From a virus (Duplodnaviria > Heunggongvirae > Uroviricota > Caudoviricetes), in IMG/VR virus record IMGVR_UViG_2529293141_000017, positions 1 through 25,976 of that record: a DNA stretch of 25,976 nt; one strand, given 5' to 3'. The position numbers and the translations under genes were made by a program. Below the pieces are notes generated by a model. It did not search any database, was not told the origin of the DNA, and saw only the letters and a list, made by a program, of their open reading frames with translations. This document shows positions 1 to 17,211 of the stretch, piece by piece (the first letter of the stretch is position 1; the number at the start of each line of letters is the position of its first letter).

Positions 1-918
1 GAAACCCGCAATGAAATCACGCAGACGGTCAGTAAAACTCTGGAAGACCAGAGTGCCACCATACAGCAGATACAGCGGGTGCAGACAGACACAAATAACG
101 ACCTGGCTGCGCTGTACATGCTGAAGGTGCAGAAAACAAAAAACGGCATTCCGTATGTTGCCGGTATAGGTGCGGGGATTGAGGATGCTGATGGCCAGCC
201 CCTGAGCAATATACTGCTGCAGGCGGACCGTATCGCGATGATTAACCCGGAGAACGGCAACAGCACGCCGCTGTTTGTGGCGCAGGGGAATCAGCTGTTC
301 ATGAACGATGTGTTCCTGAAGCGACTGTTTGCAGTGAGCATCACCTCGTCCGGCAATCCCCCGACGTTCTCCCTGACGCCGGAGGGCAGGCTGACGGCCC
401 GCAATGCGGACATCAGCGGACATATCAGTGCGAACTCGGGCACGCTCAATAATGTCGTGATAGCGGAGAACTGTACGATAAATGGCACGCTGAAAGCGGA
501 GAACATTATTGGTGATCTTGTGAAATGTGCAGGGGTGGCTTTTCCGGTGGATGGTAGTTACCTTGCGAACGGTACACGAACGCTGACGGTGTATGACGAT
601 CACAGCTTTGACCGGCAGATTATAATCCCGCCGATAATCTATGTCGGGTCAAAACAGGAATCCCGCACCAGTAATGACATCTGGACAGAGTGCTTCCTGC
701 ATGTTGATCAGAACGGACGCCGGATTTATTCAGGCAGGTCAGTGACAGAGCCGGGAATTTTCAGCGGGATCATCGATATGCCAGCCGGTCATGGTCATAT
801 CACCCTGAGTTTTACCGTAAGTTCACGACGTCAGAACGGGAGTTTTGGCAGTTCACGTATCAGTAACCTTCAGGCGATAGTGGTGAAGAAAAACAGCGCG
901 GGGATCAGTATCCGCTGA
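1..918 (+). CDS. J: Phage tail tip / host-specificity protein J, C-terminal part (5' end outside window)
   Basis: Open frame from base 1 with no stop until 918; it sits immediately upstream of the side-tail-fibre gene, as in lambda. The product assignment is from reading the translation, not from a search. Confidence 0.7.
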
Positions 919-1116
919 ACATCGCGCCCCGGGATTGCCGGAAGGAGACAAAAACCGTACAGTATGCGCGGGTGCCTTTGGCTGATGGCCGGAGGGAACA
1001 CCTGAAGGCCGGAAAGACGAAGGCCCCGGACAAACATTCATGTTTAACCCGAGGCCTGACGTTCTTCCTTCAGCAAGAAGAAGGTTAGCGCCTCTCCGTA
1101 AAAGGAGCAAGCGTTT

Positions 1117-1251
1117 ATGTCGCAAAAACCGTTAAAAACCACCGTGATTTGTATCACGGTAGTGCTCATTATCTGGATCACCCACAGTTCACTGTGCGAG
1201 TTCCGGTTCCGGATAGCGGGGCGCGGAGATTGCGGCGTTCTTACAGTGTAA
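1117..1251 (+). CDS. Hok/Gef-family-like small membrane peptide (44 aa), possibly truncated
   Basis: Own translation MSQKPLKTTVICITVVLIIWITHSSLCEFRFRIAGRGDCGVLTV: an N-terminal hydrophobic helix followed by SLCEFRFR, matching the Hok/RelF core (KSLCEIRYR). AAGGAG sits 6 nt upstream of the ATG. The C-terminus diverges from Hok. Confidence 0.3.
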   Translation: MSQKPLKTTVICITVVLIIWITHSSLCEFRFRIAGRGDCGVLTV

Positions 1252-1353
1252 GCAGTAAGAAACCGTGGCGGGGGAGAATATCCCCCGCCGACCGGTTGCT
1301 GAGGGTGGTCAGCCGGATGGCACCGTTTTAACACCAACAAACCACAAATTTTA

Positions 1354-1387
1354 CCGCAGGCCGGGAAACCGGTACTGCGGTTTTTTT
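1354..1387 (+). terminator. Rho-independent terminator-like hairpin immediately upstream of stf
   Basis: CCGCAGG ... CTGCGG stem with a nested CCGG pair, followed by T7, then GGGGG and the ATG at 1401. Confidence 0.5.
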
Positions 1388-1400
1388 ATGGGGGAAATCC

Positions 1401-2801
1401 ATGACAGTCAGAATATCGGGTGTGCTGAAGGATGGTACGGGAAAACCGGTACCGGGATGCACGATAGAGCTGAAAGCGCGCCGCACAACGGAGACGGTGA
1501 TTGTCACCACGGTGGCGTATGGTCAGCCGGGGGAAACCGGCAGTTACAGTATGGATGTTGAGCCGGGTCTGTACCGGGTGACGCTGAACACGGAAGGGTA
1601 CGCGCCGTCATATGTGGGTGACATTCTGGTGAAGGCGGATTCTGCACCGGGAACGCTGAATAAATTTCTGATGGACCTGGAGGACGCACAGTATTACCCG
1701 AAAGCCCTTGCAGAGCTGGAAGCGGTGGCAGCGGAAATCCTGAAACGTGCAGAAGCGTCAGCGGCCAGTGCGGAGGAGGCAAAAAAACGGGCAGAGAATG
1801 CGCGGGGACCGAAGGGGGATAAGGGGGACACCGGGCCGCAGGGTATTCCCGGGCCAAAAGGCGATACCCGCGAGCGGGGGCCAAAGGGTGAGCGTGGTGA
1901 GACAGGACCACAGGGGCTTCAGGGTGTGAAAGGTGAACGGGGAGAGAAGGGCGAAAAAGGCGAGCCGGGAGGGCCGGATGCGACGACGGCACAGAAGGGA
2001 ATTGTGCAGTTAAGCAGCACAACGGACAGTGATGATGAAACGAAGGCAGCCACCCCGAAAGCGGTGAAAGCGGCAATGGACAAAGCGGACGGATGCCTGG
2101 AGAAAGCGAAAAACGGTGACGATATCCCGGATAAGGTGAAGTTTCTGAACACCGTGGGGGCAGCCAGAGTATACGGGCGGGACATTCATACGGGGGCCGG
2201 TGAATGGACCACGAGTGAGTTTGTCGCCTGGCTGAAAGAAAAAGGGGCATTTGACCAGCCTTACTGGATGATGAAGGCATCACTGCTTGCGGAATTTAAT
2301 AAGGTCATCACGGATGTCGGACCGGGAAAACTCAATCTGGGAGGCTGCGCCATTGAGGTGATGGGGACGTATAACGCAGCCATAGTCCGGGTCACCATCG
2401 GCGAATACGGTGGCGATGGTTTTCTGAACGGCACGGTCTGTACCTGTACAGTTTATGGAGACACACAACGTTTTCACTGGCGGGTGGATTACAGCACAAA
2501 AAACAAGCCCACAACAGCAAGCCTGACAGTAAATGGCTGGGAGCGTGATGAAGTAACCGGTCGTTTGCGGCAATGGGGCAGTATTGAGGTAAGTGAGGAT
2601 GATGGTAAGCTTATGACACAGCACTCTATCCGTTTTCCTGTCGCTTTTCCGGTTGCTGCTCTGAATGCTCAGGTGTCTGCAGTGGGAGACCCCAACGCCA
2701 TTAAGATGTATACCCTGTCGAATCCGTCATTAGTGTCTGTGACTCTGATAACAGTCAGGGGATGCTACGGCAAGTTTTCATGGGAAGCGATCGGATACTG
2801 A
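1401..2801 (+). CDS. stf: Side tail fibre protein (lambda Stf-like) with an internal collagen-like Gly-X-Y repeat region
   Basis: The N-terminus MTVRISGVLKDGTGKPV..CTIELKARR parallels lambda Stf (MAVKISGVLKDGTGKPV), and KGIVQLSSTTDS..ATPKAVKAAMD matches the conserved fibre motif. About 58 residues of G-X-Y repeats lie at nt 1806-1980. Confidence 0.85.
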   Translation: MTVRISGVLKDGTGKPVPGCTIELKARRTTETVIVTTVAYGQPGETGSYSMDVEPGLYRVTLNTEGYAPSYVGDILVKADSAPGTLNKFLMDLEDAQYYPKALAELEAVAAEILKRAEASAASAEEAKKRAENARGPKGDKGDTGPQGIPGPKGDTRERGPKGERGETGPQGLQGVKGERGEKGEKGEPGGPDATTAQKGIVQLSSTTDSDDETKAATPKAVKAAMDKADGCLEKAKNGDDIPDKVKFLNTVGAARVYGRDIHTGAGEWTTSEFVAWLKEKGAFDQPYWMMKASLLAEFNKVITDVGPGKLNLGGCAIEVMGTYNAAIVRVTIGEYGGDGFLNGTVCTCTVYGDTQRFHWRVDYSTKNKPTTASLTVNGWERDEVTGRLRQWGSIEVSEDDGKLMTQHSIRFPVAFPVAALNAQVSAVGDPNAIKMYTLSNPSLVSVTLITVRGCYGKFSWEAIGY

Positions 2802-2810
2802 GGGCATTGT

Positions 2811-3035
2811 ATGGAACAGTATGTTTTTTCACCGTCAGAGAATATGTTCTATCCCCTGTCCCTGCGGCCGGTTTATGAGGCAGCAGGGCGCTGGCCGGAA
2901 GACGGTATTGTGGTGGATTATGTGGTGTATAAAGTCTTTGCAGCGGATGCTGCACCGGCAGGTATGAAGCGGGGCGTCGGTGCGGAAAAAATGCCGGTCT
3001 GGGTGCCGGTATCGGAGGAGGGCACGGAAACATGA
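2811..3035 (+). CDS. Tail fibre assembly protein-like, N-terminal-type fragment (74 aa)
   Basis: The N-terminus MEQYVFSPSENMFYP...AGRWPEDG resembles the N-terminal motif of tail fibre assembly chaperones. It is too short for a full Tfa and its stop overlaps the next start (ATGA). Confidence 0.4.
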   Translation: MEQYVFSPSENMFYPLSLRPVYEAAGRWPEDGIVVDYVVYKVFAADAAPAGMKRGVGAEKMPVWVPVSEEGTET

Positions 3036-3304
3036 TGCATATCAGAAATTTTTCGTATTACACCCCGGCGGAGCCGGATGTTGCAGGCGCGATGTACCTG
3101 AAGTCTGAGGATGGTCAGGACTGGTATGAGTGTCAGGCGTTGTTTTCGCCGGAGACGCTGAAGGTGGTGTATGACAGCCGGGGTGTGATTACGGGATACG
3201 GTAAGGACACTGCGTTACTGTGGCCGGTGAACCAGAGTGTGGCAGAAGTGCCGGATACCCCGGAGAACAGGAAAATTGACCTGAGCGGGCGCTGGGGGTT
3301 TTGA
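3032..3304 (+). CDS. tfa: Tail fibre assembly protein (Mu U / P2 G-like), N-terminal part; frame broken at a T4 run
   Basis: SEDGQDWYE...ETLKVVYD...VAEVPD...DLSGRWGF parallels P2 G / Mu U up to the W-x-F motif and then stops. The continuation DGEKI... lies in the -1 frame (see findings). Confidence 0.55.
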   Translation: MMHIRNFSYYTPAEPDVAGAMYLKSEDGQDWYECQALFSPETLKVVYDSRGVITGYGKDTALLWPVNQSVAEVPDTPENRKIDLSGRWGF

Positions 3305-3350
3305 CGGGGAGAAAATCACGGACCTGCTGACCGCGGAGAAAGCGCGAGGG

Positions 3351-3707
3351 ATGAAGGGCGATGAAATTAACGCCTGGCGTAATGCGATGGAAGCGGCGAA
3401 CTACACGTTTGAGCACAATGGGCGTAAATGGGACTACGGGAAGTCAACGCAGACGCGTCTTGAGCCATCGGTGGCGGCGGCGAAAGCGGGGAAACTGCCG
3501 GAGGCGTTTTTCTGGACGGATGCGGAAAACAATGATGTGCCGGTGACAGCAGAAGAGCTTATTGCGCTGAGTGAAGCGGCAGAGCAGGCGATGTTCACTA
3601 AAGGGATGGAAATCCACATTCGCCAGCGCACCATGAAGAAGGACCTGGAATCGCTGAGCAGTGCGGATGAGATCCTGGCATACAGGGTTGGCTGGGCACA
3701 GGAATAA
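3351..3707 (+). CDS. tfa: Downstream part of the same tail fibre assembly gene (or a separate 118-aa chaperone-domain ORF)
   Basis: The frame is open from 3285 and reads ...FDGEKITDLL..., completing the W-G-F-D-G motif of the upstream ORF. ATG 3351 has only a poor Shine-Dalgarno. Confidence 0.45.
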   Translation: MKGDEINAWRNAMEAANYTFEHNGRKWDYGKSTQTRLEPSVAAAKAGKLPEAFFWTDAENNDVPVTAEELIALSEAAEQAMFTKGMEIHIRQRTMKKDLESLSSADEILAYRVGWAQE

Positions 3708-3870
3708 CAGACAAAAAGATGGGGGACCATCACCTCCCCCATGAACTGCGTTGATTATGTCATTATTGTGAAGATATACACTATGCCGGGTAAATAGTGC
3801 CACGGAAAAGTTAATTCCGGAAGTGACGGAACTCTCATTTTTCGCGCATCCTGTTGATATGGATGATTTT

Positions 3871-4200
3871 TCAGATTTCCGGAAGTCCGTATTTTGCCCG
3901 GGCGCGGTTGCATGCTTCATTTGCGATGCCATTTTCTCCGGACATTGCGAATTCCCGGCACGTGGACGGACGGTTTTTGTAAACAGAGCAATATGCGTTT
4001 TTACCCGGAGTTCCCGCCAGAGCGACACATCGGGGATTTTTCTGACTGGTGCCGCGCATACAGCGATGAAAGGGGGATATTTGCTCAGTGAGACTGACCG
4101 GAACCTTTCCGCCAGCATCGTCAGCTTCTGCCCAGTAAAAAGAGACGCGGAAAAATGCACAACAGGCACCACACGTCATGCATGGATTCGGATTGTTCAT
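3871..4200 (-). CDS. YkgJ-family Cys-cluster (CxxCxxCC) zinc/iron-chelating protein, prophage moron
   Basis: [12 protein letters not shown]...RCMRGT...PRCVALAG...[14 protein letters not shown] fits the YkgJ-type pattern. Start chosen at MNNPNPC; an alternative in-frame ATG lies at 4257. Confidence 0.5.
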
Positions 4201-4299
4201 TTTTATACTATTTGTTGTTTTTTCAGCGATCAGATCAAAGGACGCTGAAAAAAACATTCTCCAAAATTAAATTATAACTATTTGATTTTATGGATAGAG

Positions 4300-4331
4300 G
4301 CATGCTTTTTACGCAAAAGTAAAAAGCATGC
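4300..4331. other. Perfect 13-bp-stem hairpin (GCATGCTTTTTAC / GTAAAAAGCATGC) between the prophage end and the potB stop
   Basis: Exact inverted repeat with a 6-nt loop, about 35 bp beyond the potB stop codon. Confidence 0.5.
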
Positions 4332-4364
4332 CAAATTTGCTATTAACTCTTTGAATATTCAGCA

Positions 4365-5228
4365 CTAATCATCTATTTCGGTTGCCTTCTTATTCAGCAA
4401 ACGAGAAGCGCGCCAGTAAACCAGCAACATCAGGCCCATTACGATAGTCAGCGTAATGCTGGTAGCTGCACCAAACGGCCAGTCACGAATATTAAGGAAC
4501 TGGACCTTGATGACGTTACCGATCAGCAGGTTTTTCGCACCGCCCATCAGGTCGGATACATAGAACAGGCCCATCGCTGGCAGCATCACCAGCAGACATC
4601 CGGCAATAATTCCCGGCATCGTCAGTGGAATAATGATACGGATAAAAGTCTGTAACTTGCTGGCACCGAGATCGCGCGCCGCCTCAAGCAACGGCTTATC
4701 CAGTTTTTCGATACTGGAGTACAGCGGCATCACCATAAACGGCAGCAGAATGTAAACCAGACCGATAATCACCGCACTGGGCGTGAACATGATACGGATT
4801 GGTGTGTCGATAACGCCCAGCCAGAGCAAAAACTCGTTGAGATAGCCTTTGGTGCTGAGGAAAATTTTCAGCCCGTAGATACGAATTAATGAGTTGGTCC
4901 AGAACGGAACAATCAGCAGAAACAGCAGCAGCGGACGCACCTTGTGTGGCAACTTCGCCAGAAACCAGGCAAACGGGTAGCCCAGCACCAGGCAGGCGAG
5001 GGTGGCGATCAGCGCCATATTCAGCGAGTGCAATAGCACTTCAAAATAGAGCGGATCGAGCAGACGCGTGTAGTTATCCAGCGTAAAGACCATTTTGACA
5101 AAACTGGCGTCGTCGCGGGTCAAAAAGCTGGTGCCAATGATCATCAGGTTGGGCAGAAAGACAAACAACACAAGCCAACCGACAATAGTGACAATCACTA
5201 CATTCTGGAACTTACTTGTGTTCTTCAT
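4365..5228 (-). CDS. potB: Spermidine/putrescine ABC transporter permease PotB
   Basis: 287-aa multi-TM permease with the EAARDLGA signature. Its start overlaps the potA stop, as in the potABCD operon. Confidence 0.93.
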
Positions 5229-6348
5229 CAGCCAGTACGACCTCCCAGCTTTCTACCCAATTAATGGCCATTTTTTGGTCGAGAGAGTGGTCAAAGTCAG
5301 GATCGTCTTCATTGAAGAATTCGCTGACCATCACCATCTTGCCATTTTCCAGTTCAACAACCGACTCCAGCGTCATGCCTTTGTAGTTACGCTCGCGAAC
5401 GTAACCAATCAGCCCTTCAGCGTGGTTGTCGTCGTTAATCTCTTCAACACGTAAGTCTTCCGGGCGCAGCAGAACATGCAGTTTTTGCCCCGGTTCAACG
5501 GCGAAGTTAACGTAGATATTACATTCGCGGCCTTCAACGTTGGCGCGTACGCGCTGCTCGTCTAGACGTTCGATGACAGTGGCGTTAAACATATTGATTT
5601 CGCCAATGAAGCCGGCAACAAACAGGTTTTTCGGCTCTTCGTAGATTTCACGCGGCGTGCCGTCTTGCTCAATGCGACCATCGCGCATCACCACAATCCT
5701 GTCTGACATGGTGAGTGCTTCTTCCTGGTCGTGAGTCACAAAGACGAATGTAATGCCAAGCTTACGCTGTAACGCTTTCAGCTCGTTCTGCATTTGCTTA
5801 CGCAGTTTGTAATCCAGCGCTGAGAGCGACTCATCCAGCAACAACAGACGAGGCTTGTTAACCACCGCGCGAGCAATGGCGACGCGTTGCTGTTGACCAC
5901 CAGAGAGCTGATGCGGTTTGCGTTGAGCGAAGGTTTCCAACTGCACCATCCGCAGGGCTTCCATCACGCGGGGCGTAATTTCAGCAGCGGGGGTTTTTTG
6001 CATGCGCAACCCAAAGGCCACATTTTCGAACACGGTCATGTGGGGGAAAAGTGCGTAGCTTTGGAAAACAGTGTTCACATAGCGGTTTTCCGCCGGAACG
6101 TGGGTGATGTCCTCGTTATCCAGCATGATGCGTCCGGAATCAACAGTTTCCAGACCTGCAATCAGGCGAAGAACGGTTGTTTTACCGCAGCCAGAAGGGC
6201 CAAGCAGCGTGAGGAACTCGCCATTGTTGATAGTCAGATCCAGCTGGGGAATGACCTCTTTACCATCAAAGCATTTGCGAATTCCCGCCAATTGCACCAG
6301 CGGTGAAAGCGAACTCGGTTGTTTATTCAATTTTTTACTCTGTCCCAT
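5212..6348 (-). CDS. potA: Spermidine/putrescine ABC transporter ATP-binding protein PotA
   Basis: 378 aa with Walker [13 protein letters not shown] signature LSGGQQQR and Walker B LLLDE. Confidence 0.96.
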
Positions 6349-6597
6349 GTAAACGCAACGGATGGCTTACCGATGCGGGGTTTGTGGTTAACCACCTTGG
6401 TGACTCTTAATGAGGGCGGTAATTCTACGGCAAACCGCTTGAATCGCCAATCTTTGTTGTGAATTACTGGCTTAGCTTTATATTCATTAAGGTAATGCTG
6501 ATAAATATTCCCGCTTGCAGGGGTAAAAGTGACCTGACGCAATATTTGTCTTTTCTTGCTTCTTAATAATGTTGTCACAAAAAGTGAGGGTGACTAC

Positions 6598-7824
6598 ATG
6601 GATAAACTACTTGAGCGATTTTTGAACTACGTGTCTCTGGATACCCAATCAAAAGCAGGGGTGAGACAGGTTCCCAGCACGGAAGGCCAATGGAAGTTAT
6701 TGCATCTGCTGAAAGAGCAGCTCGAAGAGATGGGGCTTATCAATGTGACCTTAAGTGAGAAGGGCACTTTGATGGCGACGTTACCGGCTAACGTCCCTGG
6801 CGATATCCCGGCGATTGGCTTTATTTCTCATGTGGATACCTCACCGGATTGCAGCGGCAAAAATGTGAATCCGCAAATTGTTGAAAACTATCGCGGTGGC
6901 GATATTGCGCTGGGTATCGGCGATGAAGTTTTATCACCGGTTATGTTCCCGGTGCTGCATCAGCTACTGGGTCAGACGCTGATTACCACCGATGGTAAAA
7001 CCTTGTTAGGTGCCGATGACAAAGCAGGTATTGCAGAAATCATGACCGCGCTGGCGGTATTGCAACAGAAAAAAATTCCGCATGGTGATATTCGCGTCGC
7101 CTTTACCCCGGATGAAGAAGTGGGCAAAGGGGCGAAACATTTTGATGTTGACGCCTTCGATGCCCGCTGGGCTTACACTGTTGATGGTGGTGGCGTAGGC
7201 GAACTGGAGTTTGAAAACTTCAACGCCGCGTCGGTCAATATCAAAATTGTCGGTAACAATGTTCATCCGGGCACGGCGAAAGGAGTGATGGTAAATGCGC
7301 TGTCGCTGGCGGCACGTATTCATGCGGAAGTTCCGGCGGATGAAAGCCCGGAAATGACAGAAGGCTATGAAGGTTTCTATCATCTGGCGAGCATGAAAGG
7401 CACCGTTGAACGGGCCGATATGCACTACATCATCCGTGATTTCGACCGTAAACAGTTTGAAGCGCGTAAACGTAAAATGATGGAGATCGCCAAAAAAGTG
7501 GGCAAAGGGTTACATCCTGATTGCTACATTGAACTGGTGATTGAAGACAGTTACTACAATATGCGCGAGAAAGTGGTTGAGCATCCGCATATTCTCGATA
7601 TCGCCCAGCAGGCGATGCGCGATTGCGATATTGAACCGGAACTGAAACCGATCCGCGGTGGTACCGACGGCGCGCAGTTGTCGTTTATGGGATTACCGTG
7701 CCCGAACCTGTTCACTGGCGGTTACAACTATCATGGTAAGCATGAGTTTGTGACTCTGGAAGGTATGGAAAAAGCGGTGCAGGTGATCGTCCGTATTGCC
7801 GAGTTAACGGCGCAACGGAAGTAA
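6598..7824 (+). CDS. pepT: Peptidase T (tripeptide aminopeptidase)
   Basis: 408 aa starting [21 protein letters not shown]; GAGGG Shine-Dalgarno upstream. The longer ORF start at 6556 is rejected. Confidence 0.93.
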
Positions 7825-7833
7825 GCGAAAAGG

Positions 7834-7856
7834 GATGCGGCATGTGATGCCGCATC
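7834..7856. terminator. Bidirectional terminator hairpin between convergent pepT and roxA
   Basis: GATGCGGCAT gtg ATGCCGCATC, a 10-bp perfect stem. Confidence 0.5.
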
Positions 7857-7872
7857 CGGCTTAAATCCAAAC

Positions 7873-8994
7873 TTACCCTTCGAAGAACCAATACCCGCTA
7901 TTGACCAGCGCCGCGAGCATCGCGAGGAATGACGGATCTTCCAGCGCATCGCCAAAATTCTCCGCAGTCAGCGCAATGTTGCTGGCGAGTGCATCCAGTG
8001 CCGGACGGTGCGGGGAATCGATCTTCTCACCATTGGCATACACGTCGTCGCCAATGCGCAATACGCGCAGACCACCCAGGCGCACCAGCACTTCACCTTG
8101 TTTCAGCGCATCGTAGATTTCATCCGGCTGATAAGGCGGCTCTGGCGGCGCGATATCCAGTTCATGACGTGACTGGGATATAAACTCGCCAAACCATTGC
8201 TTAAAGTGTTCCGGCTGGTTGATCAATTCGAGCATCATCTCACGCAGTTTATCCATCTCTTGCGGCAGAACATCCGCAGGATGAGCGCGAGGTGGAACAT
8301 CCGGATCGCTGTAGTAGTTGCCGCCCAGTTCACGTTGCAGCACATAATCGGCAAATCCACTAATCAGTTCCCGCGTATTTGGCGCGCGAAAGCCCACGGA
8401 ATAGTTCATCGCATTTTCCAGCGCGTAGCCTTCATGCGGGAATCCTGGCGGAATATAAAGAATATCACCAGGCTCCAGCTCTTCATCGATGATGGCTTCG
8501 AACGGATCGACCTGTAACAGATCCGGATGTGGGCAGTGCTGTTTCATTTGCAGCTTTTCGCCCACTCGCCAGCGACGACGTCCGGTACCCTGAATGATAA
8601 ACACGTCGTACTGATCGAGATGCGGACCGACGCCGCCGCCGGGTACAGAAAAAGAAATCATCAGATCATCAATACGCCAGTCCGGTAGTTCACGGAACGG
8701 TCGCATCAGCGCGGCGGTCGGCTCATGCCAGTGGTTCACTGCCTGTACCAGTAATGACCAGTTGGTTTCACCGAGATGATCGTAGCTTTCGAACGGGCCG
8801 TGGCTGACCTGCCATTTGCCATCCTGGTGACTGACCAGTCGACTGTCAACTTCGCTTTCCATCGCCAGACCCGCCAACTCGTCTGGAGAGATCGGGTCAA
8901 TAAAATTATTAAAGCCGCGTTTTAACACCACCGGGCGTTTCTGCCAGTGACGTTCAAGAAAATCGGGCCAGTTAAGAGTGAGTTGGTATTCCAT
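7873..8994 (-). CDS. roxA: Ribosomal protein uL16 arginine hydroxylase (YcfD/RoxA, JmjC/cupin family)
   Basis: 373 aa from MEYQLTLNWPDFLERHWQKRP, in conserved synteny with pepT. Confidence 0.9.
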   Translation of the reverse strand: MEYQLTLNWPDFLERHWQKRPVVLKRGFNNFIDPISPDELAGLAMESEVDSRLVSHQDGKWQVSHGPFESYDHLGETNWSLLVQAVNHWHEPTAALMRPFRELPDWRIDDLMISFSVPGGGVGPHLDQYDVFIIQGTGRRRWRVGEKLQMKQHCPHPDLLQVDPFEAIIDEELEPGDILYIPPGFPHEGYALENAMNYSVGFRAPNTRELISGFADYVLQRELGGNYYSDPDVPPRAHPADVLPQEMDKLREMMLELINQPEHFKQWFGEFISQSRHELDIAPPEPPYQPDEIYDALKQGEVLVRLGGLRVLRIGDDVYANGEKIDSPHRPALDALASNIALTAENFGDALEDPSFLAMLAALVNSGYWFFEG

Positions 8995-9195
8995 GTTAAG
9001 CATCCACAGGCTGGTATCTGCAACCGATTATAACGGATGCTTAACGTAATGCGTGAAGTATGGACATATTTTATCAATTAGTGTTTTTTGCCGTTTCATA
9101 ATGTTTCAGGTTGTGCATTATGTTTTTGATTATAAACAGATTTGTGATTTTTCTTGTTCCAGCTTGTTTCACGTTGTAGCCCTTTGTGCAACGAT

Positions 9196-9221
9196 CGGTG
9201 TAGTTAATGGTGTAGTTAATT
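9196..9221. repeat. Candidate attL core (CGGTGTAGTTAATGGTGTAGTTAATT)
   Basis: Direct repeat of 24410-24435; lies immediately 5' of the int start. Confidence 0.55.
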
Positions 9222-9242
9222 GTGATGACCGGATTCAAAATT

Positions 9243-10472
9243 ATGAGCAGAGCACTTAACAAACTGAGCGATACACAGCTGAGGAAAATCAACGGCACAC
9301 CCGCCCAAAAAACAGCCTTTCTTAATGACGGTGGAAACCTGAGCGTCAGGCATTCAACCAGTGGCCTTTTAACCTGGTATTTCACTTACAGGGCCGGAAC
9401 GGGAAGGGGGGCACCACCGGAACGCATTAAGCTGGGAAATTATCCTGATCTGAGCCTGAAATCAGCCAGGGAAAAAGCCGCCCAGTGTCGCGCATGGCTG
9501 GCAGAGGGGAAAAATCCACGTCATGAAATGAATTACACCGTACAGGAAGCGTTAAAGCCGGTAACGGTTGGCGATGCGCTCACCTACTGGCTTGAGTCGT
9601 ACGCAAAGGAAAACCGTGTGGATTATGACCCACTGAAAAAGCGGCTAAATAATCACGTAATACAGCACATTGGCCCTATGCCGCTGGATAAATGCGAGCT
9701 ACGGCACTGGCTGACCTGTTTTGATCGGGTGGCAAAGAAAGCCCCTGTTTCCGCCGGGTTCCTGCTACAGACATGCAAGCAGGCGCTTAAGTTCTGCAGG
9801 AAGCGGCGCTATGCAATCAGCAACGTTCTTGATGATATGAGTGTGGCGGACGTTGGGAAAAAACCGGATATAAGTGAGCGTGTCTTAAGTAACAAAGAAC
9901 TTGGCGAATTATTGCAGGCACTGGACAAAAAAATATTTTCCCCTTACTACGTCGCACTAATCCGCCTCCTGATTGTTTTCGGATGCCGGACAGTAGAACT
10001 GAGGTTATCGGAGATCGGCGAGTGGGATTTTACCGAAATGCTCTGGACCGTTCCGAAGGAGCACAGCAAAACGAAGGTAGCCATATTCCGGCCCATACCG
10101 GAAGCGATACTGCCGTTCGTCACGCAGCTGGTGGAGCAGAACAGGCACACGGGCTTATTGCTGGGGGAAGTGAAACAGGAAACCAGCGTATCGCAGTACG
10201 GCAGATTGGTGCACAGGAGGCTTAAACACCCTCACTGGTCACTGCATGACATCCGGCGCACCTTTACAACCATGCTGAACGATTTAGGCGTTGATCCTCA
10301 CGTCGTGGAGCAGCTTACAGGCCACCAGATGCCAGGAATGCAACGCGTGTACAACCATTCCCGCTATATTGATGCGAAACGCAATGCGCTTGATATGTGG
10401 GTGGAGCGGTTGGAGATACTGGCGGGAACACATGAAAACGTAACCACGCTACCAGTAACCAGAATAAAATAA
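9243..10472 (+). CDS. int: Tyrosine integrase (P4-type)
   Basis: N-terminal LSDTQLRKI...NDGGNLSV...WYFTYR arm-binding-like region, and a C-terminal catalytic region with HDIRRTF and a terminal RY...H. Alternative ATG at 9222. Confidence 0.88.
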   Translation: MSRALNKLSDTQLRKINGTPAQKTAFLNDGGNLSVRHSTSGLLTWYFTYRAGTGRGAPPERIKLGNYPDLSLKSAREKAAQCRAWLAEGKNPRHEMNYTVQEALKPVTVGDALTYWLESYAKENRVDYDPLKKRLNNHVIQHIGPMPLDKCELRHWLTCFDRVAKKAPVSAGFLLQTCKQALKFCRKRRYAISNVLDDMSVADVGKKPDISERVLSNKELGELLQALDKKIFSPYYVALIRLLIVFGCRTVELRLSEIGEWDFTEMLWTVPKEHSKTKVAIFRPIPEAILPFVTQLVEQNRHTGLLLGEVKQETSVSQYGRLVHRRLKHPHWSLHDIRRTFTTMLNDLGVDPHVVEQLTGHQMPGMQRVYNHSRYIDAKRNALDMWVERLEILAGTHENVTTLPVTRIK

Positions 10473-10846
10473 TTTTTTTCGTGTTTTTTCAGTATGCGCA
10501 TACTGGATAAGTGCACAGATACAACGTGAAACAATGTGCAATAACGTGACACAATCACGAACAAGAGGCCAAAAAGAATACAGATTTATAAGTTACTGAT
10601 TTTTAATGCTCAGCTGGTTTTTTATACATTAGTGAATTACGCGTTAAAGCGTGCGAAAAAAGGCATAAAACAAGATTTTATGCCTTTGTATTAACATGAA
10701 TTTAAATGATTTTATCCTGATTATTCCTCTTTCTGTAAACCATGCGACACCAACATTTGCCAACTCTGAATCATCCTGACACAATCAGACACATCCCAAC
10801 GCAATAGAACACGAAATAACTCTTTAAGAAACGAAAGGGGGCAATA

Positions 10847-11035
10847 GTGTTAAGCACTGATCGGTTTATACGTGAAAAAGAATGCGAAAAGCTAACAGGC
10901 CTTAGCCGCTCATGCCGCTACCGCCTGGAAAAGGCCGGACAATTCCCATCACGTCGTAAACTTGGCGGGCGTTCTGTTGGCTGGTCTTTATCTGAGGTTT
11001 TGGCCTGGAAGGATAGCTGCAAGGCAGTTCACTAA
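10847..11035 (+). CDS. alpA: AlpA-family (MerR/Xis-like) transcriptional regulator
   Basis: 62 aa with LTGLSRS..YRL...FP..RKLGGRSVGW, matching the AlpA pattern. GTG start with an AAGGGGG Shine-Dalgarno. Confidence 0.75.
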   Translation: MLSTDRFIREKECEKLTGLSRSCRYRLEKAGQFPSRRKLGGRSVGWSLSEVLAWKDSCKAVH

Positions 11036-11215
11036 AAAGACTGGCGGCACACAGCCACCACCAATCCATTATTGACCGATACCGGGATCTCGGTATCGGG
11101 AATAAACGCCATAATACTGAGGTATAACCATGATGAAATATACGCCCGTACAGGGGCGGGGATTCGTTCGCCCTGGTGAATCTGAAAAGCCATGCTATAG
11201 GGTATTTTCAGGCAT

Positions 11216-11243
11216 AAAAAAAGCGGTCCCGATATGGAACCGC
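11216..11243 (-). terminator. Rho-independent terminator for the minus-strand repressor cassette
   Basis: On the minus strand: GGCGGTTCC atatc GGGACCGC followed by T7. Confidence 0.45.
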
Positions 11244-11311
11244 CTTTCTGAACAATTAACCCGCTGCGCCGTATGTGTCAACAATCATAAGCCCGAACAT
11301 GATAACCGTGA

Positions 11312-11515
11312 TCAGGCTGGTGGGCAATTACCTTGCTTGTTGGGGCCGTATTGTGCTGCCATTTTCATCCGTTCAGAACGTGAATATTTTTTTAGAAACT
11401 CATCAAGGACAAAAGCGCATGGAGCGAATCTTTCTGATTCATGCTCGAGCGCCATATTTTCGTGCTCTCTGTTCGTTTTTTGCGATGGTGTATTGGTTGA
11501 TTCTTTATTGGTCAT
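11312..11515 (-). CDS. Hypothetical small protein (67 aa), second gene of repressor cassette A
   Basis: Paralogue of 12028-12255: shared MTN start and a conserved C-terminal F-x-L-D/E-x-F-x-K-Y-x-R motif. It is followed by a terminator. Confidence 0.45.
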   Translation of the reverse strand: MTNKESTNTPSQKTNREHENMALEHESERFAPCAFVLDEFLKKYSRSERMKMAAQYGPNKQGNCPPA

Positions 11516-11572
11516 TGTGTGTACCTGTAAAGCAATGCGCCGTAGTACCTCACGCCACGGCGCTGATAGTAA

Positions 11573-11752
11573 TTATTCTGATTCTTTGGCCTTGCGGCGC
11601 TGGCGGCGTTTGATCTCGCCTTTTGCTGCCGTAACTAGAAATCCGGCGGTACTTTCGCCAGGTTCTTTAAGTTGCTCAATATCGGTCATTACCTCATGCG
11701 GGATTCTGACCGTTGTCATTTGTGATTTTGCGTTCTTTGCACCTGTTGCCAT
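11573..11752 (-). CDS. Ribbon-helix-helix DNA-binding protein (59 aa), candidate island repressor, copy A
   Basis: Own translation MATGAKNAKSQMTTVRIPHEVMTDIEQLKEPGESTAGFLVTAAKGEIKRRQRRKAKESE, with a beta-strand / helix / helix pattern. AGGAGA Shine-Dalgarno 7 nt upstream. Divergent from a plus-strand promoter and operators. Confidence 0.55.
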   Translation of the reverse strand: MATGAKNAKSQMTTVRIPHEVMTDIEQLKEPGESTAGFLVTAAKGEIKRRQRRKAKESE

Positions 11753-11771
11753 TTCTGGTTCTCCTGATAAT

Positions 11772-11864
11772 CGGTGTATTTCAGTATACGCAAAAAAAAG
11801 ATAAAAAAAGTCTTGCGGTGTATTTCACCTGAATGTAGATTTAAAAATGAAGGTGAAATACACC
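11772..11864. promoter_or_regulatory. Operator/promoter region A: GGTGTATTTCACC in three copies, two forming a perfect 13-bp inverted pair
   Basis: 11817-11829 and 11852-11864 are exact reverse complements; a third direct copy lies at 11772-11783. The region sits between divergent genes. Confidence 0.45.
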
Positions 11865-11938
11865 CAAAACAACAACGCCCCGCAGTGATGGGAACACATA
11901 CGGGGCGTCTAACCAAACCATTAATTGAGGTAACGATT

Positions 11939-12010
11939 ATGGCTATAAAAGAGCATAGCTTACTCTTTATACACACACAAACGCCCCGGAAACGGAATAA
12001 TCCGTTTCAT
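11939..12010 (+). pseudogene. Truncated 5' remnant of an Icd-like gene (paralogue of 12685-12879)
   Basis: MAIKEHSLLFIHTQT... shares the M-x-x-x-H-x-x-x-L-x-HTQT start with 12685, then loses similarity where cassette B begins. Confidence 0.35.
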
Positions 12011-12027
12011 AGTTCGGTTTTGTGCAC

Positions 12028-12255
12028 TCATCCTGGCGGTCGGTTTTTGCCGGATTTAAGCCGCCGTGGGTATTTATCGACAAAATCTTCAAGGGCAAAT
12101 TTTTCTGGTGGCACTAAGCGCGGCGCTGGTGGTGGTATTTTTGTTCTGGTTAGTTCTTCCTCAACTCTGGCGCAGGCTTCTGACTGCCTTTGCCGGATGA
12201 TTTCATCATCTTGCGTTTGCGTGTCTTGTATTGGTGATAGTGTGTTGTTGGTCAT
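12028..12255 (-). CDS. Hypothetical small protein (75 aa), second gene of repressor cassette B
   Basis: Paralogue of 11312-11515, same position in the cassette. Confidence 0.5.
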   Translation of the reverse strand: MTNNTLSPIQDTQTQDDEIIRQRQSEACARVEEELTRTKIPPPAPRLVPPEKFALEDFVDKYPRRLKSGKNRPPG

Positions 12256-12312
12256 GATACTGCCCTGTAAAGCAATGCGCCGTAGTACCTCACACCACGG
12301 CGCTGATAGTGA

Positions 12313-12492
12313 TTATTCTGATTCTTTGGCCTTGCGACGCTGGCGGTATTCAACTTCCCGCTTTAATGCAGCTGTAACAAACTGCCCTGTACTTTCGCCG
12401 GGCATTTTTACCGCCTCAACATTGTTCATAACTTCATGTGGAACCCTTGCCGCAACTGTTTGTGATTTTGCGTTTACTGCTTTTGTCGCCAT
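12313..12492 (-). CDS. Ribbon-helix-helix DNA-binding protein (59 aa), candidate island repressor, copy B
   Basis: MATKAVNAKSQTVAARVPHEVMNNVEAVKMPGESTGQFVTAALKREV.... GAGGGG Shine-Dalgarno upstream. Divergent from the replication operon. Confidence 0.6.
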   Translation of the reverse strand: MATKAVNAKSQTVAARVPHEVMNNVEAVKMPGESTGQFVTAALKREVEYRQRRKAKESE

Positions 12493-12542
12493 GTTGAGCA
12501 CCCCTCATAAAAAACAAATGCAGTATGCAGGAAAAAAAACAA

Positions 12543-12594
12543 GTGTTCAACACTTGACGTGTTTAACACCTCGATTTAAATTGGTGTTCAACAC
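12543..12594. promoter_or_regulatory. Operator/promoter region B: three GTGTT(C/T)AACAC palindromes overlapping a TTGACG-N17-TAAATT promoter
   Basis: Palindromes at 12543, 12559 and 12584 bracket the -35 and -10 of the plus-strand promoter feeding 12685 onward. Confidence 0.5.
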
Positions 12595-12684
12595 CTTATT
12601 TAGGCAAGGTGTAGAAACGACGAAACCCCGCACTGTAGGAGCAGTAACGGGGCTTCTAACCAACAACGTAAACGAGGAGCCGTT

Positions 12685-12879
12685 ATGGTTGCCGTAAATC
12701 ATATACCACACCTTGTACACACACAAACGGCCTTTGTGTGGCGTTTTCTGGCACTGAGTGCCGGAGAATCTCAAATCATCCACGTAACCGCCTGGACGGA
12801 ACGCGAAGCGCGTAACCTTTGCCCGTCCGGTTGTGTTGCTGTATTTGCCGCCCGTATTCGCCAGGGGGTAGGCTTATGA
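12685..12879 (+). CDS. Small protein, possibly Icd-like (host cell division inhibitor family); first gene of the early operon
   Basis: 64 aa with a GAGGAG Shine-Dalgarno. The motif FVWRFLALS...TEREAR...FAARI resembles Icd-like proteins of P4-type elements, from memory only. Confidence 0.5.
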   Translation: MVAVNHIPHLVHTQTAFVWRFLALSAGESQIIHVTAWTEREARNLCPSGCVAVFAARIRQGVGL

Positions 12880-13109
12880 GCCAGGAAATCACACTACAAC
12901 AGGCAGCAGAACGCGCCCACCAAATCGAAGTTATTTGCGCACTGGCAGAGGATTACCCTGGCATGATGACCGACAGCGAATCAGGGGCAATCATCGGCTT
13001 ACTTAAACGCCTTAGCGGTGAGGTCTGCGTATTCCTGAGCGATGAACAGGAAAGAAGAACGCTTATTTCTAACGAAAAAAAATGCGGAGGGGTACACCAT
13101 GTGCAATAA
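12876..13109 (+). CDS. Hypothetical protein (77 aa)
   Basis: ATG overlaps the upstream stop (ATGA); GGGGGT Shine-Dalgarno; translationally coupled. Confidence 0.5.
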   Translation: MSQEITLQQAAERAHQIEVICALAEDYPGMMTDSESGAIIGLLKRLSGEVCVFLSDEQERRTLISNEKKCGGVHHVQ

Positions 13110-13341
13110 CATCCGTCCGGACGCAGCCGCCGCCGCACTCACTACGCTGATGCACGCGCTTATTGATATTGAATGCACGGCAGAGCTTGCACAAAAGGAA
13201 GAACGGGAGGAATACACATTGTTCGCCCTGGAATGTATCCGATACACCGCCACGCGGTCGCTGAATGACGCTAAAAATATTCTTGTTGCAGATTGTGAAA
13301 ATGGGGGGGGGTTATGCGTGATGATCGTTTTAATTCCCTGA
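13099..13341 (+). CDS. Hypothetical protein (80 aa) with a G9 tract near its 3' end
   Basis: GGAGGGG Shine-Dalgarno before ATG 13099; overlaps the neighbouring genes. Confidence 0.45.
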   Translation: MCNNIRPDAAAAALTTLMHALIDIECTAELAQKEEREEYTLFALECIRYTATRSLNDAKNILVADCENGGGLCVMIVLIP

Positions 13342-13547
13342 AACAAGAATTTTCCGGCGTTCCTGATGATGCGGCTGATGCGCTTTCGTCAATGCCAGAA
13401 CTTATTAGAGCGGCTTTTTTCTTACTTTCCACGAGAGAATATAAATCAACGGGGCTTGATGTACTGAATATCGCCGCCGATTATGCGGAATATGTGGCAG
13501 AGGCGCGTTACAGAAGAAAATTTCCTGAGGATGTAAGCCATGCGTGA
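13314..13547 (+). CDS. Hypothetical protein (77 aa)
   Basis: ATG directly after the G9 tract, which serves as its Shine-Dalgarno; operon context. Confidence 0.5.
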   Translation: MRDDRFNSLKQEFSGVPDDAADALSSMPELIRAAFFLLSTREYKSTGLDVLNIAADYAEYVAEARYRRKFPEDVSHA

Positions 13548-13773
13548 TATTTACCACGAAACAACAGAACGCGTATTTCTTGCACTTTCTCACAGTGAAA
13601 ACATGCTGGAAATATTGCGCATATGGCTTGAAACACTTGGCGACAATGAACGCGACAAACAAAAATCAAGAATTGTCACGGCATTAATAACGCTTCTTGA
13701 GCCTGTAATAATGGAACTACAAGAAATAGAGACATTGCACGACAGATATAACGAACAGCACACCGGAGAATAA
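13540..13773 (+). CDS. Hypothetical protein (77 aa)
   Basis: Start overlaps the upstream stop (ATGCGTGA); operon context. Confidence 0.5.
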   Translation: MRDIYHETTERVFLALSHSENMLEILRIWLETLGDNERDKQKSRIVTALITLLEPVIMELQEIETLHDRYNEQHTGE

Positions 13774-13778
13774 AAATA

Positions 13779-14078
13779 ATGAAACTTAAATATTCTGGCT
13801 TAACTGCCAGTGGCAACACTCACCCTAAATTTACGCGCGGTGATATTTACCGCGACCAGTACGGCGGTACGGTAATGATTAAGGGCGTGGCGGGACGGTG
13901 CGTAACTTACCGCCGTGAAGGTTACGAATATGATTGCGTGATGCCTGTTTATCAGTTCCGGCGTGATTTTTCTCTGGTACAGACCGCGCCGCATAACGTG
14001 CCCACCAGCAGGGAGAAAGCACGCGCCAATATTCAGAAGATGAAAAACATGATTAACGGATTCAGGGGCAAGAAATGA
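13779..14078 (+). CDS. Hypothetical protein (99 aa), translationally coupled to the helicase gene
   Basis: Stop overlaps the helicase ATG (ATGA). Confidence 0.55.
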   Translation: MKLKYSGLTASGNTHPKFTRGDIYRDQYGGTVMIKGVAGRCVTYRREGYEYDCVMPVYQFRRDFSLVQTAPHNVPTSREKARANIQKMKNMINGFRGKK

Positions 14079-15472
14079 AAAGCGCACCGAACTTAAAAAA
14101 ACAGCCTTACGACAAGATGACCGAAGTCATCATTTTTGCGGGTAGTGATGCGTGGGCACATGCGAAACAGTGGCAGGAACAGGACGGGCGACTGGCTGGC
14201 GATAATGTGCCTCCCATTGTGCTGGCTGATGATCAACTGGATGAACTGGCAGACCTGAGAATCATCGACGAGGGGCGCTATTGTGTCCGGCTGTACAAGG
14301 CAGGCCACATCAGGCCATCAAATATTAATGCCATTGCGCACAAGCTGGCGGCGGCGGGCGTAACTGATGCGAATTATTACCCCGAAGGGATACACAGCCA
14401 GAAGCGGGAGAACTGGCGCGAATATCTGGAACGGGAGCGGGGGAAAAAGCCAGGGGAAGAACACCACCAGCGAAAAACCACGCTACCGATGAGCGTTGGA
14501 TCTGCCGGATACGACACGCAATTAGATTACGTGGTAAAGGGGATTATTCCGGCATCGTCGCTTTGCAGCATATACGGGGCGAGCGGTTCCTATAAATCAT
14601 TCCTTGCGGGTTCGTGGGCGTGTCACGTTTCCACGGGCCGCCAGTGGGGAGGCCGCAGGGTGGCGCATGGCGCTGTTCTCTATGTGGTTGGTGAAGGCGG
14701 TATCGGCGTTCCGCGTCGTGTAAAAGCCTGGGAGGTTGTGCACGGTGAGCAGGTGAAAAATCTGTATCTGGTAAACCGTCCCATCTTTCCGGCGGTCCCG
14801 CTTGATGTTGATGAAATGGTTATCGCTGCCCGTCAGGTGGAGCGGGAAACGGGTAAACCTGTACGCATGATTATTCTGGATACGCTGGCGCGTTGCTTTG
14901 GTGGGAATGATGAAAATGATTCCCGTGATATGGGGGCGTTTATCCGTGGTTGTGACGAACTGAAACGACGCACAGGGGCCACGGTGCTGGTGGTTCACCA
15001 TTCCGGCAAGGATGAGACGAAAGGCGCGCGCGGTTCCAGTGCATTTCGTGCATCACTGGATGCTGAATACCGGATACGCAGGGAGGACGCAGGAAGCGAA
15101 GCGCTGGTTATCTCATGCACCAAAATGAAGGACGCGGAGGAACTCAAAGAAGCCGCATATGACTTACGCGTGGTGGAGCTGTTTACCGACGCTGACGGGG
15201 AGTTAATCACGTCGCTGGTGGTGGTGGATAAGCCGCGCCCTCCCGTTGAACTGGAGCGCATCGAGGAGGCAGGCAACAAGACGGAAAACCATACCGCACT
15301 ATGGGGGTGCATCCGTTCACGCACACAGAACGGCGACAAGTGCACGATCCCGCTGTTACGTGATGACATGAAACGGCTTGGGTATGACGTGAAAAATATG
15401 CGGCGATGGTTAGCCAAACTGGAAAAAGACGCCGTGATTTACATTGATGGTGATGATGTAGGACCACTGTAA
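14075..15472 (+). CDS. Replicative ATPase/helicase (RecA-fold, RepA/AAA_25-like) with an N-terminal domain of unknown role
   Basis: Walker A GASGSYKS, Walker B-like ILDTLARCFGG, and VVHHSGKD...GARGSSA motifs. Confidence 0.8.
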   Translation: MKSAPNLKKQPYDKMTEVIIFAGSDAWAHAKQWQEQDGRLAGDNVPPIVLADDQLDELADLRIIDEGRYCVRLYKAGHIRPSNINAIAHKLAAAGVTDANYYPEGIHSQKRENWREYLERERGKKPGEEHHQRKTTLPMSVGSAGYDTQLDYVVKGIIPASSLCSIYGASGSYKSFLAGSWACHVSTGRQWGGRRVAHGAVLYVVGEGGIGVPRRVKAWEVVHGEQVKNLYLVNRPIFPAVPLDVDEMVIAARQVERETGKPVRMIILDTLARCFGGNDENDSRDMGAFIRGCDELKRRTGATVLVVHHSGKDETKGARGSSAFRASLDAEYRIRREDAGSEALVISCTKMKDAEELKEAAYDLRVVELFTDADGELITSLVVVDKPRPPVELERIEEAGNKTENHTALWGCIRSRTQNGDKCTIPLLRDDMKRLGYDVKNMRRWLAKLEKDAVIYIDGDDVGPL

Positions 15473-15672
15473 AAAGTGAGTAGCAAAAGTGAGTAATGAT
15501 GAGGTTTTTACAAAATATTAACACGATTACTCACTTTCTCACCTGTATACATGCTCAAAAGTGAGGAGTAAAAAAATCATTATGAAACATACACATAAAG
15601 CATCAAAAAATATCAAGTGAGACGAAGCGAGACGCTTTAAAAAGTGAGGTGTAAAAGTGAGCATGAGTGAGG
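15473..15672. repeat. Iteron array (AAAGTGAG, at least 7 direct and 1-2 inverted copies) with an AT-rich spacer: candidate island replication origin
   Basis: Copies at 15473, 15486, 15530 (inverted), 15558, 15615, 15641 and 15654, immediately 3' of the helicase gene. Confidence 0.55.
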
Positions 15673-15926
15673 AGATAACCAAAATGCGCAGAGACAGAAC
15701 AGGGCCGAAATATAAAGCGTTAGACATGACAGAGCACGCCTTAAAGGTGGCAATCAGGGTAATAGACCGCCACGCGGGGGAAGGATACGCGAAAGCACAT
15801 CCCGAACTGATAAGCGCATTCATGACCACGACGGCGGCAAATTTTGCCACGCTGACAGAGCGGGAGATTGCCGAAGCGGAACAGGTAACAACCATCAACG
15901 TTAAAACCGGAGAGGTGGAATCATGA
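15663..15926 (+). CDS. Hypothetical protein (87 aa)
   Basis: ORF begins inside the last iterons; its stop overlaps the next ATG. Confidence 0.4.
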   Translation: MSEEITKMRRDRTGPKYKALDMTEHALKVAIRVIDRHAGEGYAKAHPELISAFMTTTAANFATLTEREIAEAEQVTTINVKTGEVES

Positions 15927-16228
15927 GCGAACCAAAATTTGGTGAAAAATTTTACAAGCACAACGGACGGATCACGATTCTGCAAATAAGCGCAGCTACA
16001 CCAGGCTGGTGGGTTGAAACAGACGAAGGATCCTCACCCGTGGCATCATGGGCGCTTTGTGTGCTTAGTTACCCTGACCGCGATGTGTATCAGGATATTC
16101 TGCCTGTGATATCCACTGACAAAGGCATGAAACCCGTAGACATCAAAAACATGGGGTTTCAGTGCGTAATGCTCACTGAAAAAATGATGGAAGAGATGAA
16201 AAAGAACAATGCCGGATCGCTTCACTGA
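15923..16228 (+). CDS. Hypothetical protein (101 aa)
   Basis: Coupled ORF upstream of ssb. Confidence 0.5.
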   Translation: MSEPKFGEKFYKHNGRITILQISAATPGWWVETDEGSSPVASWALCVLSYPDRDVYQDILPVISTDKGMKPVDIKNMGFQCVMLTEKMMEEMKKNNAGSLH

Positions 16229-16237
16229 GGTGGCAAT

Positions 16238-16648
16238 ATGACAGCACAAATTGCAGCTTACGGGCGGCTGGTGGACGACCCGCAGGTAAAACAGAGCAGC
16301 AAGGGCACACCGATGACTCTGGCGCGTATGGCGGTATCGTTGCCATGCAGCCAGGCACATGACGGACAGGCGACGTTATGGTTATCGGTTATCGCATTTG
16401 GCAAACAGGCCGATTTCCTGGCTAAACATCAAAAAGGCGATGTTGCCAGCGTATCCGGCACGATGCAGGTAAGCCAGTGGACCGGACAGAACGGGGAAAC
16501 GCGGCGGGGGTATCAGGTTATTGCAGACAGCGTAATCAGTGCCCGCGCGGCACGTCCAGGCGGGAACAGACGCAAAACCACAGGCACACAGGGTAATCAG
16601 CCACCAGCGGGAGGCGATGACCCTTACGGTGACGGTATTCCGTTCTGA
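16238..16648 (+). CDS. ssb: Single-stranded DNA-binding protein
   Basis: OB-fold-like N-terminal region, a Gly/Pro/Gln-rich linker, and an acidic C-terminal tip DDPYGDGIPF (compare DDDIPF of SSB). Confidence 0.8.
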   Translation: MTAQIAAYGRLVDDPQVKQSSKGTPMTLARMAVSLPCSQAHDGQATLWLSVIAFGKQADFLAKHQKGDVASVSGTMQVSQWTGQNGETRRGYQVIADSVISARAARPGGNRRKTTGTQGNQPPAGGDDPYGDGIPF

Positions 16649-16658
16649 GGGGGTGACG

Positions 16659-16907: not shown

Positions 16908-17173
16908 GAATATCAGAACCACACCATACAGCCGGAGCAATCCGGCTTTTTGTTATTTTTTGTAAATTATTTGTTCGTGGTTGTTCCACGTTGTTCACTG
17001 AGCGGATCGGCATATTTTACCCGAACTGAATCATGATTATTCTCGCCCGTGGTGCCAGGACGCTGGGGCCACTTTCCCGCCTGTTAATGTGCTCGCCAAT
17101 ATTCATTACCAGGCGGGAAAACGATCGGTGCGATTGCTGATTTCCTTATGAAAAACGGTTGAGTGTTTGCCGC

Positions 17174-17211
17174 GTCCTGGAGTTCCTTACTTAACCCCAG
17201 GACTTTTTTTT
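17174..17211 (+). terminator. Terminator-like hairpin plus T8 ending 1 nt before the major capsid ATG
   Basis: GTCCTGG ... CCAGGAC stem followed by TTTTTTTT and then ATG 17212. Confidence 0.45.

Follow-up and report, generated by a model that had tools for sequence, protein, structure and literature searches.

A prophage gene that is divided between two reading frames in a deposited genome may be a pseudogene, a recoding site, a pair of separate genes or a sequencing artefact, and the tail fibre assembly region of a lambdoid prophage in Escherichia coli STEC EH250 raises the question of which of these applies. This region was examined within a window of 25,976 nucleotides, the whole stretch of DNA analysed here (IMG/VR record IMGVR_UViG_2529293141_000017), which corresponds to positions 1-25976 of AFDW01000015.1 (GCA_000225145.2) and is identical over its positions 1-8707 to the locus labelled L018. 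The AFDW00000000 genome is that of E. coli EH250 (O118:H12, stx2b), a draft assembled with Celera 6.0 from 454 Titanium FLX reads only (PMC3491183). The start of the window falls inside the prophage, of which approximately 3.7 kb is included, and the locus is the right end of this prophage, adjoining potB (Table 1).

Table 1. Features of the prophage end and the adjoining chromosome, in window coordinates.
Feature	Position	Strand	Remarks
Tail-tip protein J, C-terminus	79-918	+	
hok/gef-family gene	1117-1251	+	private extra G at 1215-1218
Side tail fibre gene, 466 aa, intact	1401-2801	+	Pfam domains (see text); relatives annotated 'prophage tail fiber N-terminal domain-containing protein'
74-aa stand-alone ORF, intact	2811-3035	+	phrog_19350; 100% identical to WP_001367204.1
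Upstream piece of broken 224-aa gene, 90 codons + TGA	3032-3304	+	TfaMu-type N-domain
GGGGG run at frame break	3294-3298	+	one G above every related sequence
Downstream piece, 134 codons + stop, +1 frame	3303-3707	+	DUF4376 C-domain, PF14301
ykgJ-like CxxCxxCC gene, with 14-bp hairpin at 4299-4332	3871-4332	-	between prophage end and potB
potB	4365-5228	-	then potA, pepT, roxA downstream

The module itself is an ordinary lambdoid unit of a side tail fibre and its chaperone. The fibre gene carries the Pfam domains PF08400 (1.5e-41), PF03406 (Phage_fiber_2 repeat, 7.6e-18), PF01391 (collagen) and PF21882 (gp53-like tip, 4.9e-07), and it is followed on the same strand by the 74-aa ORF and then by the interrupted gene at 3032-3707, an order that is the same in all relatives examined. 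Between the prophage end and potB there is a perfect 14-bp hairpin (4299-4332). Since potC does not adjoin potB in the window, the prophage seems to have entered at or beside the 3' end of potB. In other E. coli strains the same potB site holds different lambdoid prophages, including one with type III secretion system (T3SS) effector cargo (L013).

The original prediction, made from the letters of the sequence, had described a tfa-like gene whose frame is broken at 3294-3304 by one extra T, with the conserved motif continuing in the -1 frame. The break lies at those positions, where GGGGGTTTTGA is found: the 90-aa ORF, which overlaps the 74-aa ORF by ATGA, ends there in ...SGRWGF-TGA, and translation from 3303 reads DGEKITDLL... 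and runs without interruption as far as the stop at 3707. A one-base insertion is likewise borne out by alignment with relatives, but both the base and the direction of the shift had to be corrected. In base-level alignments the window has GGGGG where L001, L002 and L005 have GGGG, and the T run that follows is unchanged (TTTT or CTTT in relatives). The extra base is thus a G, and a search for reads with TTT rather than TTTT, which had been proposed as decisive, is aimed at the wrong run. Relative to the upstream ORF, reading resumes in the +1 frame, with the stop at 3302-3304 and GAC at 3303-3305. Among 5,426 complete E. coli genomes, all 27 full-length matches across the break align 120 bases to the 121-base query, every one with four G. 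The alignment with intact homologues that had been suggested therefore returned a single in-frame ORF with G4 in the relatives, an uninterrupted 675 bp annotated by PGAP as 'DUF4376 domain-containing protein'. The two ORFs are not a chance pattern, because homology crosses the break both in the end-to-end match to phrog_11571 and in the TfaMu alignment, which runs through 'SGRWGF.DGEKI'.

When the frame is repaired, the 224-aa protein matches phrog_11571 over its whole length (E=1.3e-147), and its two halves resemble different families. Residues 1-99 match the Tfa family phrog_136 (E=3.3e-31), and residues 19-106 align straight through the break to residues 25-113 of TfaMu (PDB 5YVQ_B, phmmer E=1.3e-14). 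Residues 105-211 constitute a DUF4376 domain (PF14301), scoring 65.4 bits in the repaired protein and 67.2 bits (E=2e-18) in the +1 frame of the window against a cut-off of 25. The Pfam Caudo_TAP profile (PF02413) reached 17.7 bits, below its gathering score of 22.1, and was matched at profile positions 2-57 of 131 only. An AlphaFold model built with 27 homologues (pLDDT 94) shows a beta-sandwich N-domain (1-96) and a C-domain of helices and hairpins (100-215); the sole Foldseek match was TfaMu, to the N-domain only (E=3.9e-9, target TM 0.85, rmsd 1.6 A). The earlier description of a P2 G or Mu U-like tfa gene consequently holds for residues 1 to approximately 100, but not for the C-terminal half, which is DUF4376 and not the classical Tfa C-domain. 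The homologue search yielded 340 clusters; almost all of the best 120 listed come from E. coli and Salmonella, and fused proteins of about 219-236 aa predominate. In the family alignment S84, G85, W87, F89, D90 and G91 are invariant; since these are residues of SGRWGFDG, the break lies in the most conserved motif of the protein, at the junction between the N-domain and the DUF4376 domain. On the evidence of sequence and predicted fold, the intact gene can be assigned as a common type of putative tail fibre assembly chaperone that combines a TfaMu-like N-domain with a DUF4376 C-domain.

Experiments on the Alteromonas phages V22 and A5 and on Campylobacter CJIE1 prophages have shown that DUF4376 proteins whose genes follow a fibre gene either bind functional fibres or are required for them (PMC7289586, PMC10579305, PMC7882524). 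The modular model of Tfa proteins assigns fibre-tip binding to the N-domain and oligomerisation to the C-domain (PMC9608196). The analogy of TfaMu, Pam3 gp25 and the DUF4376 chaperones from the Alteromonas phages and CJIE1 suggests that the N-domain of the EH250 protein would dock on the C-terminal tip of the fibre, and that the C-domain would oligomerise and promote fibre trimerisation. Earlier work has already described this gene family, its location 3' of the fibre gene and the exchange of its modules.

The five-G allele is confined to a single assembly. The exact 33-mer with G5 had no match in IMG/VR, in the GTDB species-representative genomes or in the JGI metagenomes, and the G4 version had six IMG/VR matches. 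Besides the source contig, the truncated 90-aa ORF or the internal 118-aa ORF was found in other public assemblies only as partial genes at contig ends; the four contigs with a 90-aa partial that were inspected (L014-L017) read GGGGTTTT(G) and end at the hinge. No independent sequence data reproducing the frameshift were found, and the 454-only EH250 assembly is its sole carrier. The prophage part of the window holds a second private G, 2.1 kb upstream in the hok/gef gene, where GGGG stands in place of GGG and the C-terminus is altered (44 aa ending ...IAGRGDCGVLTV as compared with 46 aa ending ...IAGAEIAAFLQCKQ). Of 38 records from E. coli genomes with at least 99% identity, all of the best 25, which were listed, align 200 bases to the 201-base query, with this base as the sole difference. 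Other homopolymer differences, which distinguish the window from L006 at 17204, 21448 and 21542, are natural alleles with 100% identity in other genomes.

These observations bear on four readings of the split gene, of which a 454 homopolymer overcall that survived into the Celera consensus is the probable one; the gene of the actual phage is then probably intact. Consensus sequences from 454 data are known for errors in homopolymer length, and a rough estimate from these errors gives one to two false frameshifts among the approximately 35 genes of the window. An overcall is the best explanation because G5 is private and is accompanied by the second private G in hok/gef; an out-of-frame G9 tract in a satellite gene fits the same pattern, and the possibility of a sequencing error, which the original prediction had allowed for, has thereby become the most likely cause. 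A generally careless assembly was also considered and found only partial support: the assembly is not riddled with homopolymer errors, because the three other differences checked are natural alleles. Against an artefact, both private events fall in the 3.7-kb prophage part, which holds 37 of the 146 G/C runs of at least four bases in the window, and this clustering fits relaxed selection on the prophage slightly better than uniform sequencing error. The main competitor is accordingly a real mutation, in which recent +1 slippage in a G4 run pseudogenised the EH250 chaperone gene and an independent G was gained in hok/gef. Such slippage is the commonest real spontaneous frameshift and a normal mutational route, prophage accessory genes often decay, the frameshift is present in the deposited sequence and both private events are in prophage genes dispensable to the host. 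Prophages of related genomes are also truly damaged: IS66 interrupts the L001 fibre gene, and gpJ is frameshifted in L004. We nevertheless consider a real pseudogene unlikely, as among thousands of relatives a single 454-only assembly carries the allele, and two homopolymer changes of the same base and direction within 2.1 kb are the expected signature of pyrosequencing. Secondary decay is also lacking: the downstream frame is open, the fibre gene and the 74-aa ORF are intact, no other decay was seen in the module and, the extra G aside, two substitutions over 672 nt separate the gene from that of L001. Were the G5 run real and the gene dead, the fibre would be left without its two-domain chaperone, with a 90-aa N-domain fragment alone remaining.

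The two other readings take the extra G as real and the product as functional, and both are far less probable. In one, a prfB-like +1 ribosomal frameshift, at a site created by chance, would let a fraction of ribosomes produce the full-length protein and leave the fibre partly functional, with peptidyl-tRNA-Phe slipping from UUU at 3299-3301 to UUU at 3300-3302 at the weak stop UGA-C, downstream of a G-rich run resembling a Shine-Dalgarno element. The sequence UGGGGG-UUU-UGA-C does recall the prfB site (AGGGGG-UAU-CUU-UGA-C) in its G-rich run, its U-rich slippery codon and its in-frame UGA followed by C; once slipped, the tRNA would re-pair perfectly, and the GAC codon that follows brings back the conserved D of SGRWGFDG. 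The resemblance is superficial, however, for prfB needs a spacer of about 3 nt between the Shine-Dalgarno-like element and the slippery codon and here GGGGG abuts UUU with none. The homologues are in frame: neither the 27 close relatives nor the 28 family members aligned contain the shift, and a site confined to one draft genome can hardly be called programmed. The site is probably absent from the real DNA, and an artefactual G would leave no such site at all. We therefore hold recoding to be very improbable. The last reading, that the split is a functional design in which the 90-aa N-domain and a 118-aa DUF4376 protein, starting at the first ATG of the +1 frame (3351), are made as two proteins, is scarcely credible. 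Its attraction is that the break falls at the domain hinge and that both domain types are recombined elsewhere, in the DUF4376-only 'ORF-191' of P-Eib phages and in N-modules fused to other C-domains. Yet most of the homologue list consists of the fused proteins of about 219-236 aa and most shorter entries are labelled partial, the ATG at 3351 lies inside the predicted helix 100-120 and would remove 17 conserved residues, GAGGG abuts this ATG with no spacer, and the arrangement occurs in no other assembly. In the collections searched, separate and selected ORFs divided at the hinge occurred in no independently sequenced phage or prophage, and a promoter scan found no sigma-70-like site able to drive a separate downstream ORF. 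Beyond this locus, the overcall that we favour carries a caution, in that 454-only drafts such as the 2011-2012 STEC set yield private homopolymer frameshifts that resemble pseudogenes or recoding sites.

The 74-aa ORF between the fibre gene and the interrupted gene had been taken for a fragment of one Tfa type. Homology to the N-terminal module of another Tfa type is indeed present, but the ORF is a selected gene in its own right: it matches the 70-aa family phrog_19350 over its full length (E=4.1e-47), with a weaker match to the Tfa family phrog_188 (E=1.7e-14). A scan of 1.84 billion representatives gave 273 HMMER matches, in two size classes: proteins of 66-90 aa that stand alone, and the first 67 or so residues of 130-200-aa proteins that match Caudo_TAP (PF02413) along their entire length. 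Rare fusions link the same module to DUF4376 (P0178, 186 aa) and to a Gp53-like_C fibre tip (P0149, 229 aa), and the homologues also include a 504-aa fusion of a fibre tip with Caudo_TAP (P0188); the pattern shows free shuffling between fibre tips and chaperone modules. In every relative examined the ORF is separate, annotated as 'hypothetical', 'phage tail protein' or 'tail fiber assembly protein'. Its dN/dS against diverged copies was 0.17 (dS 0.63) and 0.22 (dS 1.01), equal to the value for the 224-aa gene. Conservation, dN/dS of about 0.2 and the full-length PHROG match rule out a decaying fragment. The AlphaFold (AF2) model has a pLDDT of 89; a Foldseek search of it against the PDB gave no solved-structure match, and its weak matches were only to unnamed viral proteins of about 150 aa. 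We also considered whether the 74-aa protein is a paralogue of the TfaMu-like N-domain, for which there was no support (hhalign probability of 0.6% against the 224-aa family, and Foldseek without a PDB match). An NCBIfam search returned no match for either small protein. The ORF therefore belongs to a widespread uncharacterised family that includes stand-alone small proteins under purifying selection, and its product may well be a second tip-specific assembly factor.

The mosaic character ascribed to the region by the original prediction is evident in comparisons with other prophages, in which identity differs from module to module as is typical of tail fibre modules. Relative to L004 and L006, protein identity is 51% for the C-terminal 136 aa of the fibre, 71% for the 74-aa ORF, 71% for the N-domain of the 224-aa protein and 100% for its DUF4376 half; the protein of the downstream piece is likewise 100% identical to those of L001 and L002. 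Relative to L005 the order is reversed, with 100% for each of the first three segments and 95% for the DUF4376 half, and the corresponding values for L008 are 99%, 100%, 98% and 95%. Outside its C-terminus the L008 fibre is far less similar, with 50-72% identity. Counted in nucleotides, the N-half and C-half of the chaperone gene differ from L005 at 0 and 18 positions and from L004 at 79 and 9 positions, respectively. The N-domain therefore co-varies with the C-terminal 136 aa of the fibre, as does the 74-aa ORF, and the DUF4376 half does not. Because the nucleotide differences switch between the two halves, the exchange boundary is placed at the conserved hinge, SGRWGFDG, where a generic DUF4376 module is joined to one specific to the fibre tip. 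This tip-specific module, which travels as one exchangeable unit, consists of the fibre C-terminus, the 74-aa protein and the TfaMu-like N-domain.

Several further observations concern the same modules in other genomes. Draft contigs break near the SGRWGF-DGEKI hinge, with L014-L017 ending exactly there and L019 and L020 starting inside the DUF4376 half, as expected at a repeat boundary. This suggests that prophages of one genome carry repeats of the two halves in varying combinations, which break assemblies there. In L007 (IMGVR_UViG_2660238269_000004, 8671-10895) the fibre and DUF4376 genes match the window proteins in several frames, suggesting multiple frameshifts or a low-quality assembly. 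Some prophages have a YadA-like gene directly 3' of the DUF4376 gene (L005, 3842-4993), and 'ORF-191' of the P-Eib phages (H103-H107) matches the same DUF4376 module.

Comparison with known systems places the EH250 module among several partial counterparts. It resembles TfaMu (Mu U, 5YVQ chain B) and P2 G in the position of the gene just 3' of a fibre gene, in the alignment and fold of the N-domain and in the conserved motif SG(R/K)W.F.DG, but its C-half is made of the helices and beta-hairpins of DUF4376 and not of the short helical Caudo_TAP C-domain. With Alteromonas V22 gp27, A5 gp9 and the gene downstream of the Campylobacter CJIE1 H-fibre it shares a C-terminal PF14301 domain and a location 3' of the fibre gene; the N-domains differ, an extra 74-aa gene stands here between fibre and chaperone, and the host and phage type are also different, the EH250 fibre being the side fibre of a lambdoid siphovirus. 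The arrangement is like that of stf-tfa in lambda, since it follows gpJ and a small moron (lom in lambda, hok/gef here) and consists of a fibre with the N-terminal domain PF08400 and a downstream chaperone gene. Unlike lambda, the fibre ends in a gp53-like tip (PF21882), the chaperone combines a TfaMu-type N-domain with DUF4376 in place of lambda Tfa, and the 74-aa ORF is additional.

In contrast to Mu and P1, the EH250 locus has no invertible segment or invertase. Inspection of the ORFs showed no recombinase between the fibre genes and potB, where the ykgJ-like gene is the only one present, and no tfa-like ORF on the minus strand. A repeat search of positions 1-4400 found two inverted repeats only, a 76%-matched pair at 1178/1601 and the hairpin at 4299-4332, neither of which flanks the tfa region. 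An invertible host-range switch of the Mu G, P1 C or e14 P kind is therefore rejected, in agreement with the original prediction that neither an invertase nor inverted crossover sites are present.

Elsewhere in the window, a hypothetical gene of a satellite element is out of frame at a G9 tract (13296-13304) and is split into 13042-13341 and 13314-13547. In strain 25-07338 this gene has G7 and forms an intact 154-aa ORF (L013, 16697-17161), and other genomes match a 181-bp query across the tract with 179, 180 or 184 bases. As judged from these alignments the length of the tract seems to differ between genomes, and it may be hypermutable or phase-variable, or may reflect homopolymer sequencing noise. 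The element, which resembles a capsid-forming phage-inducible chromosomal island (cf-PICI class), occupies approximately 9200-23900 between roxA and phoQ. It encodes a tyrosine integrase, an HTH regulator, an Icd-like protein, a RepA-family helicase, SSB and a PerC-like regulator, together with an HK97 capsid protein, prohead protease, portal, head closure and connector proteins, an HNH endonuclease and the small and large terminase, and it contains no tail genes.
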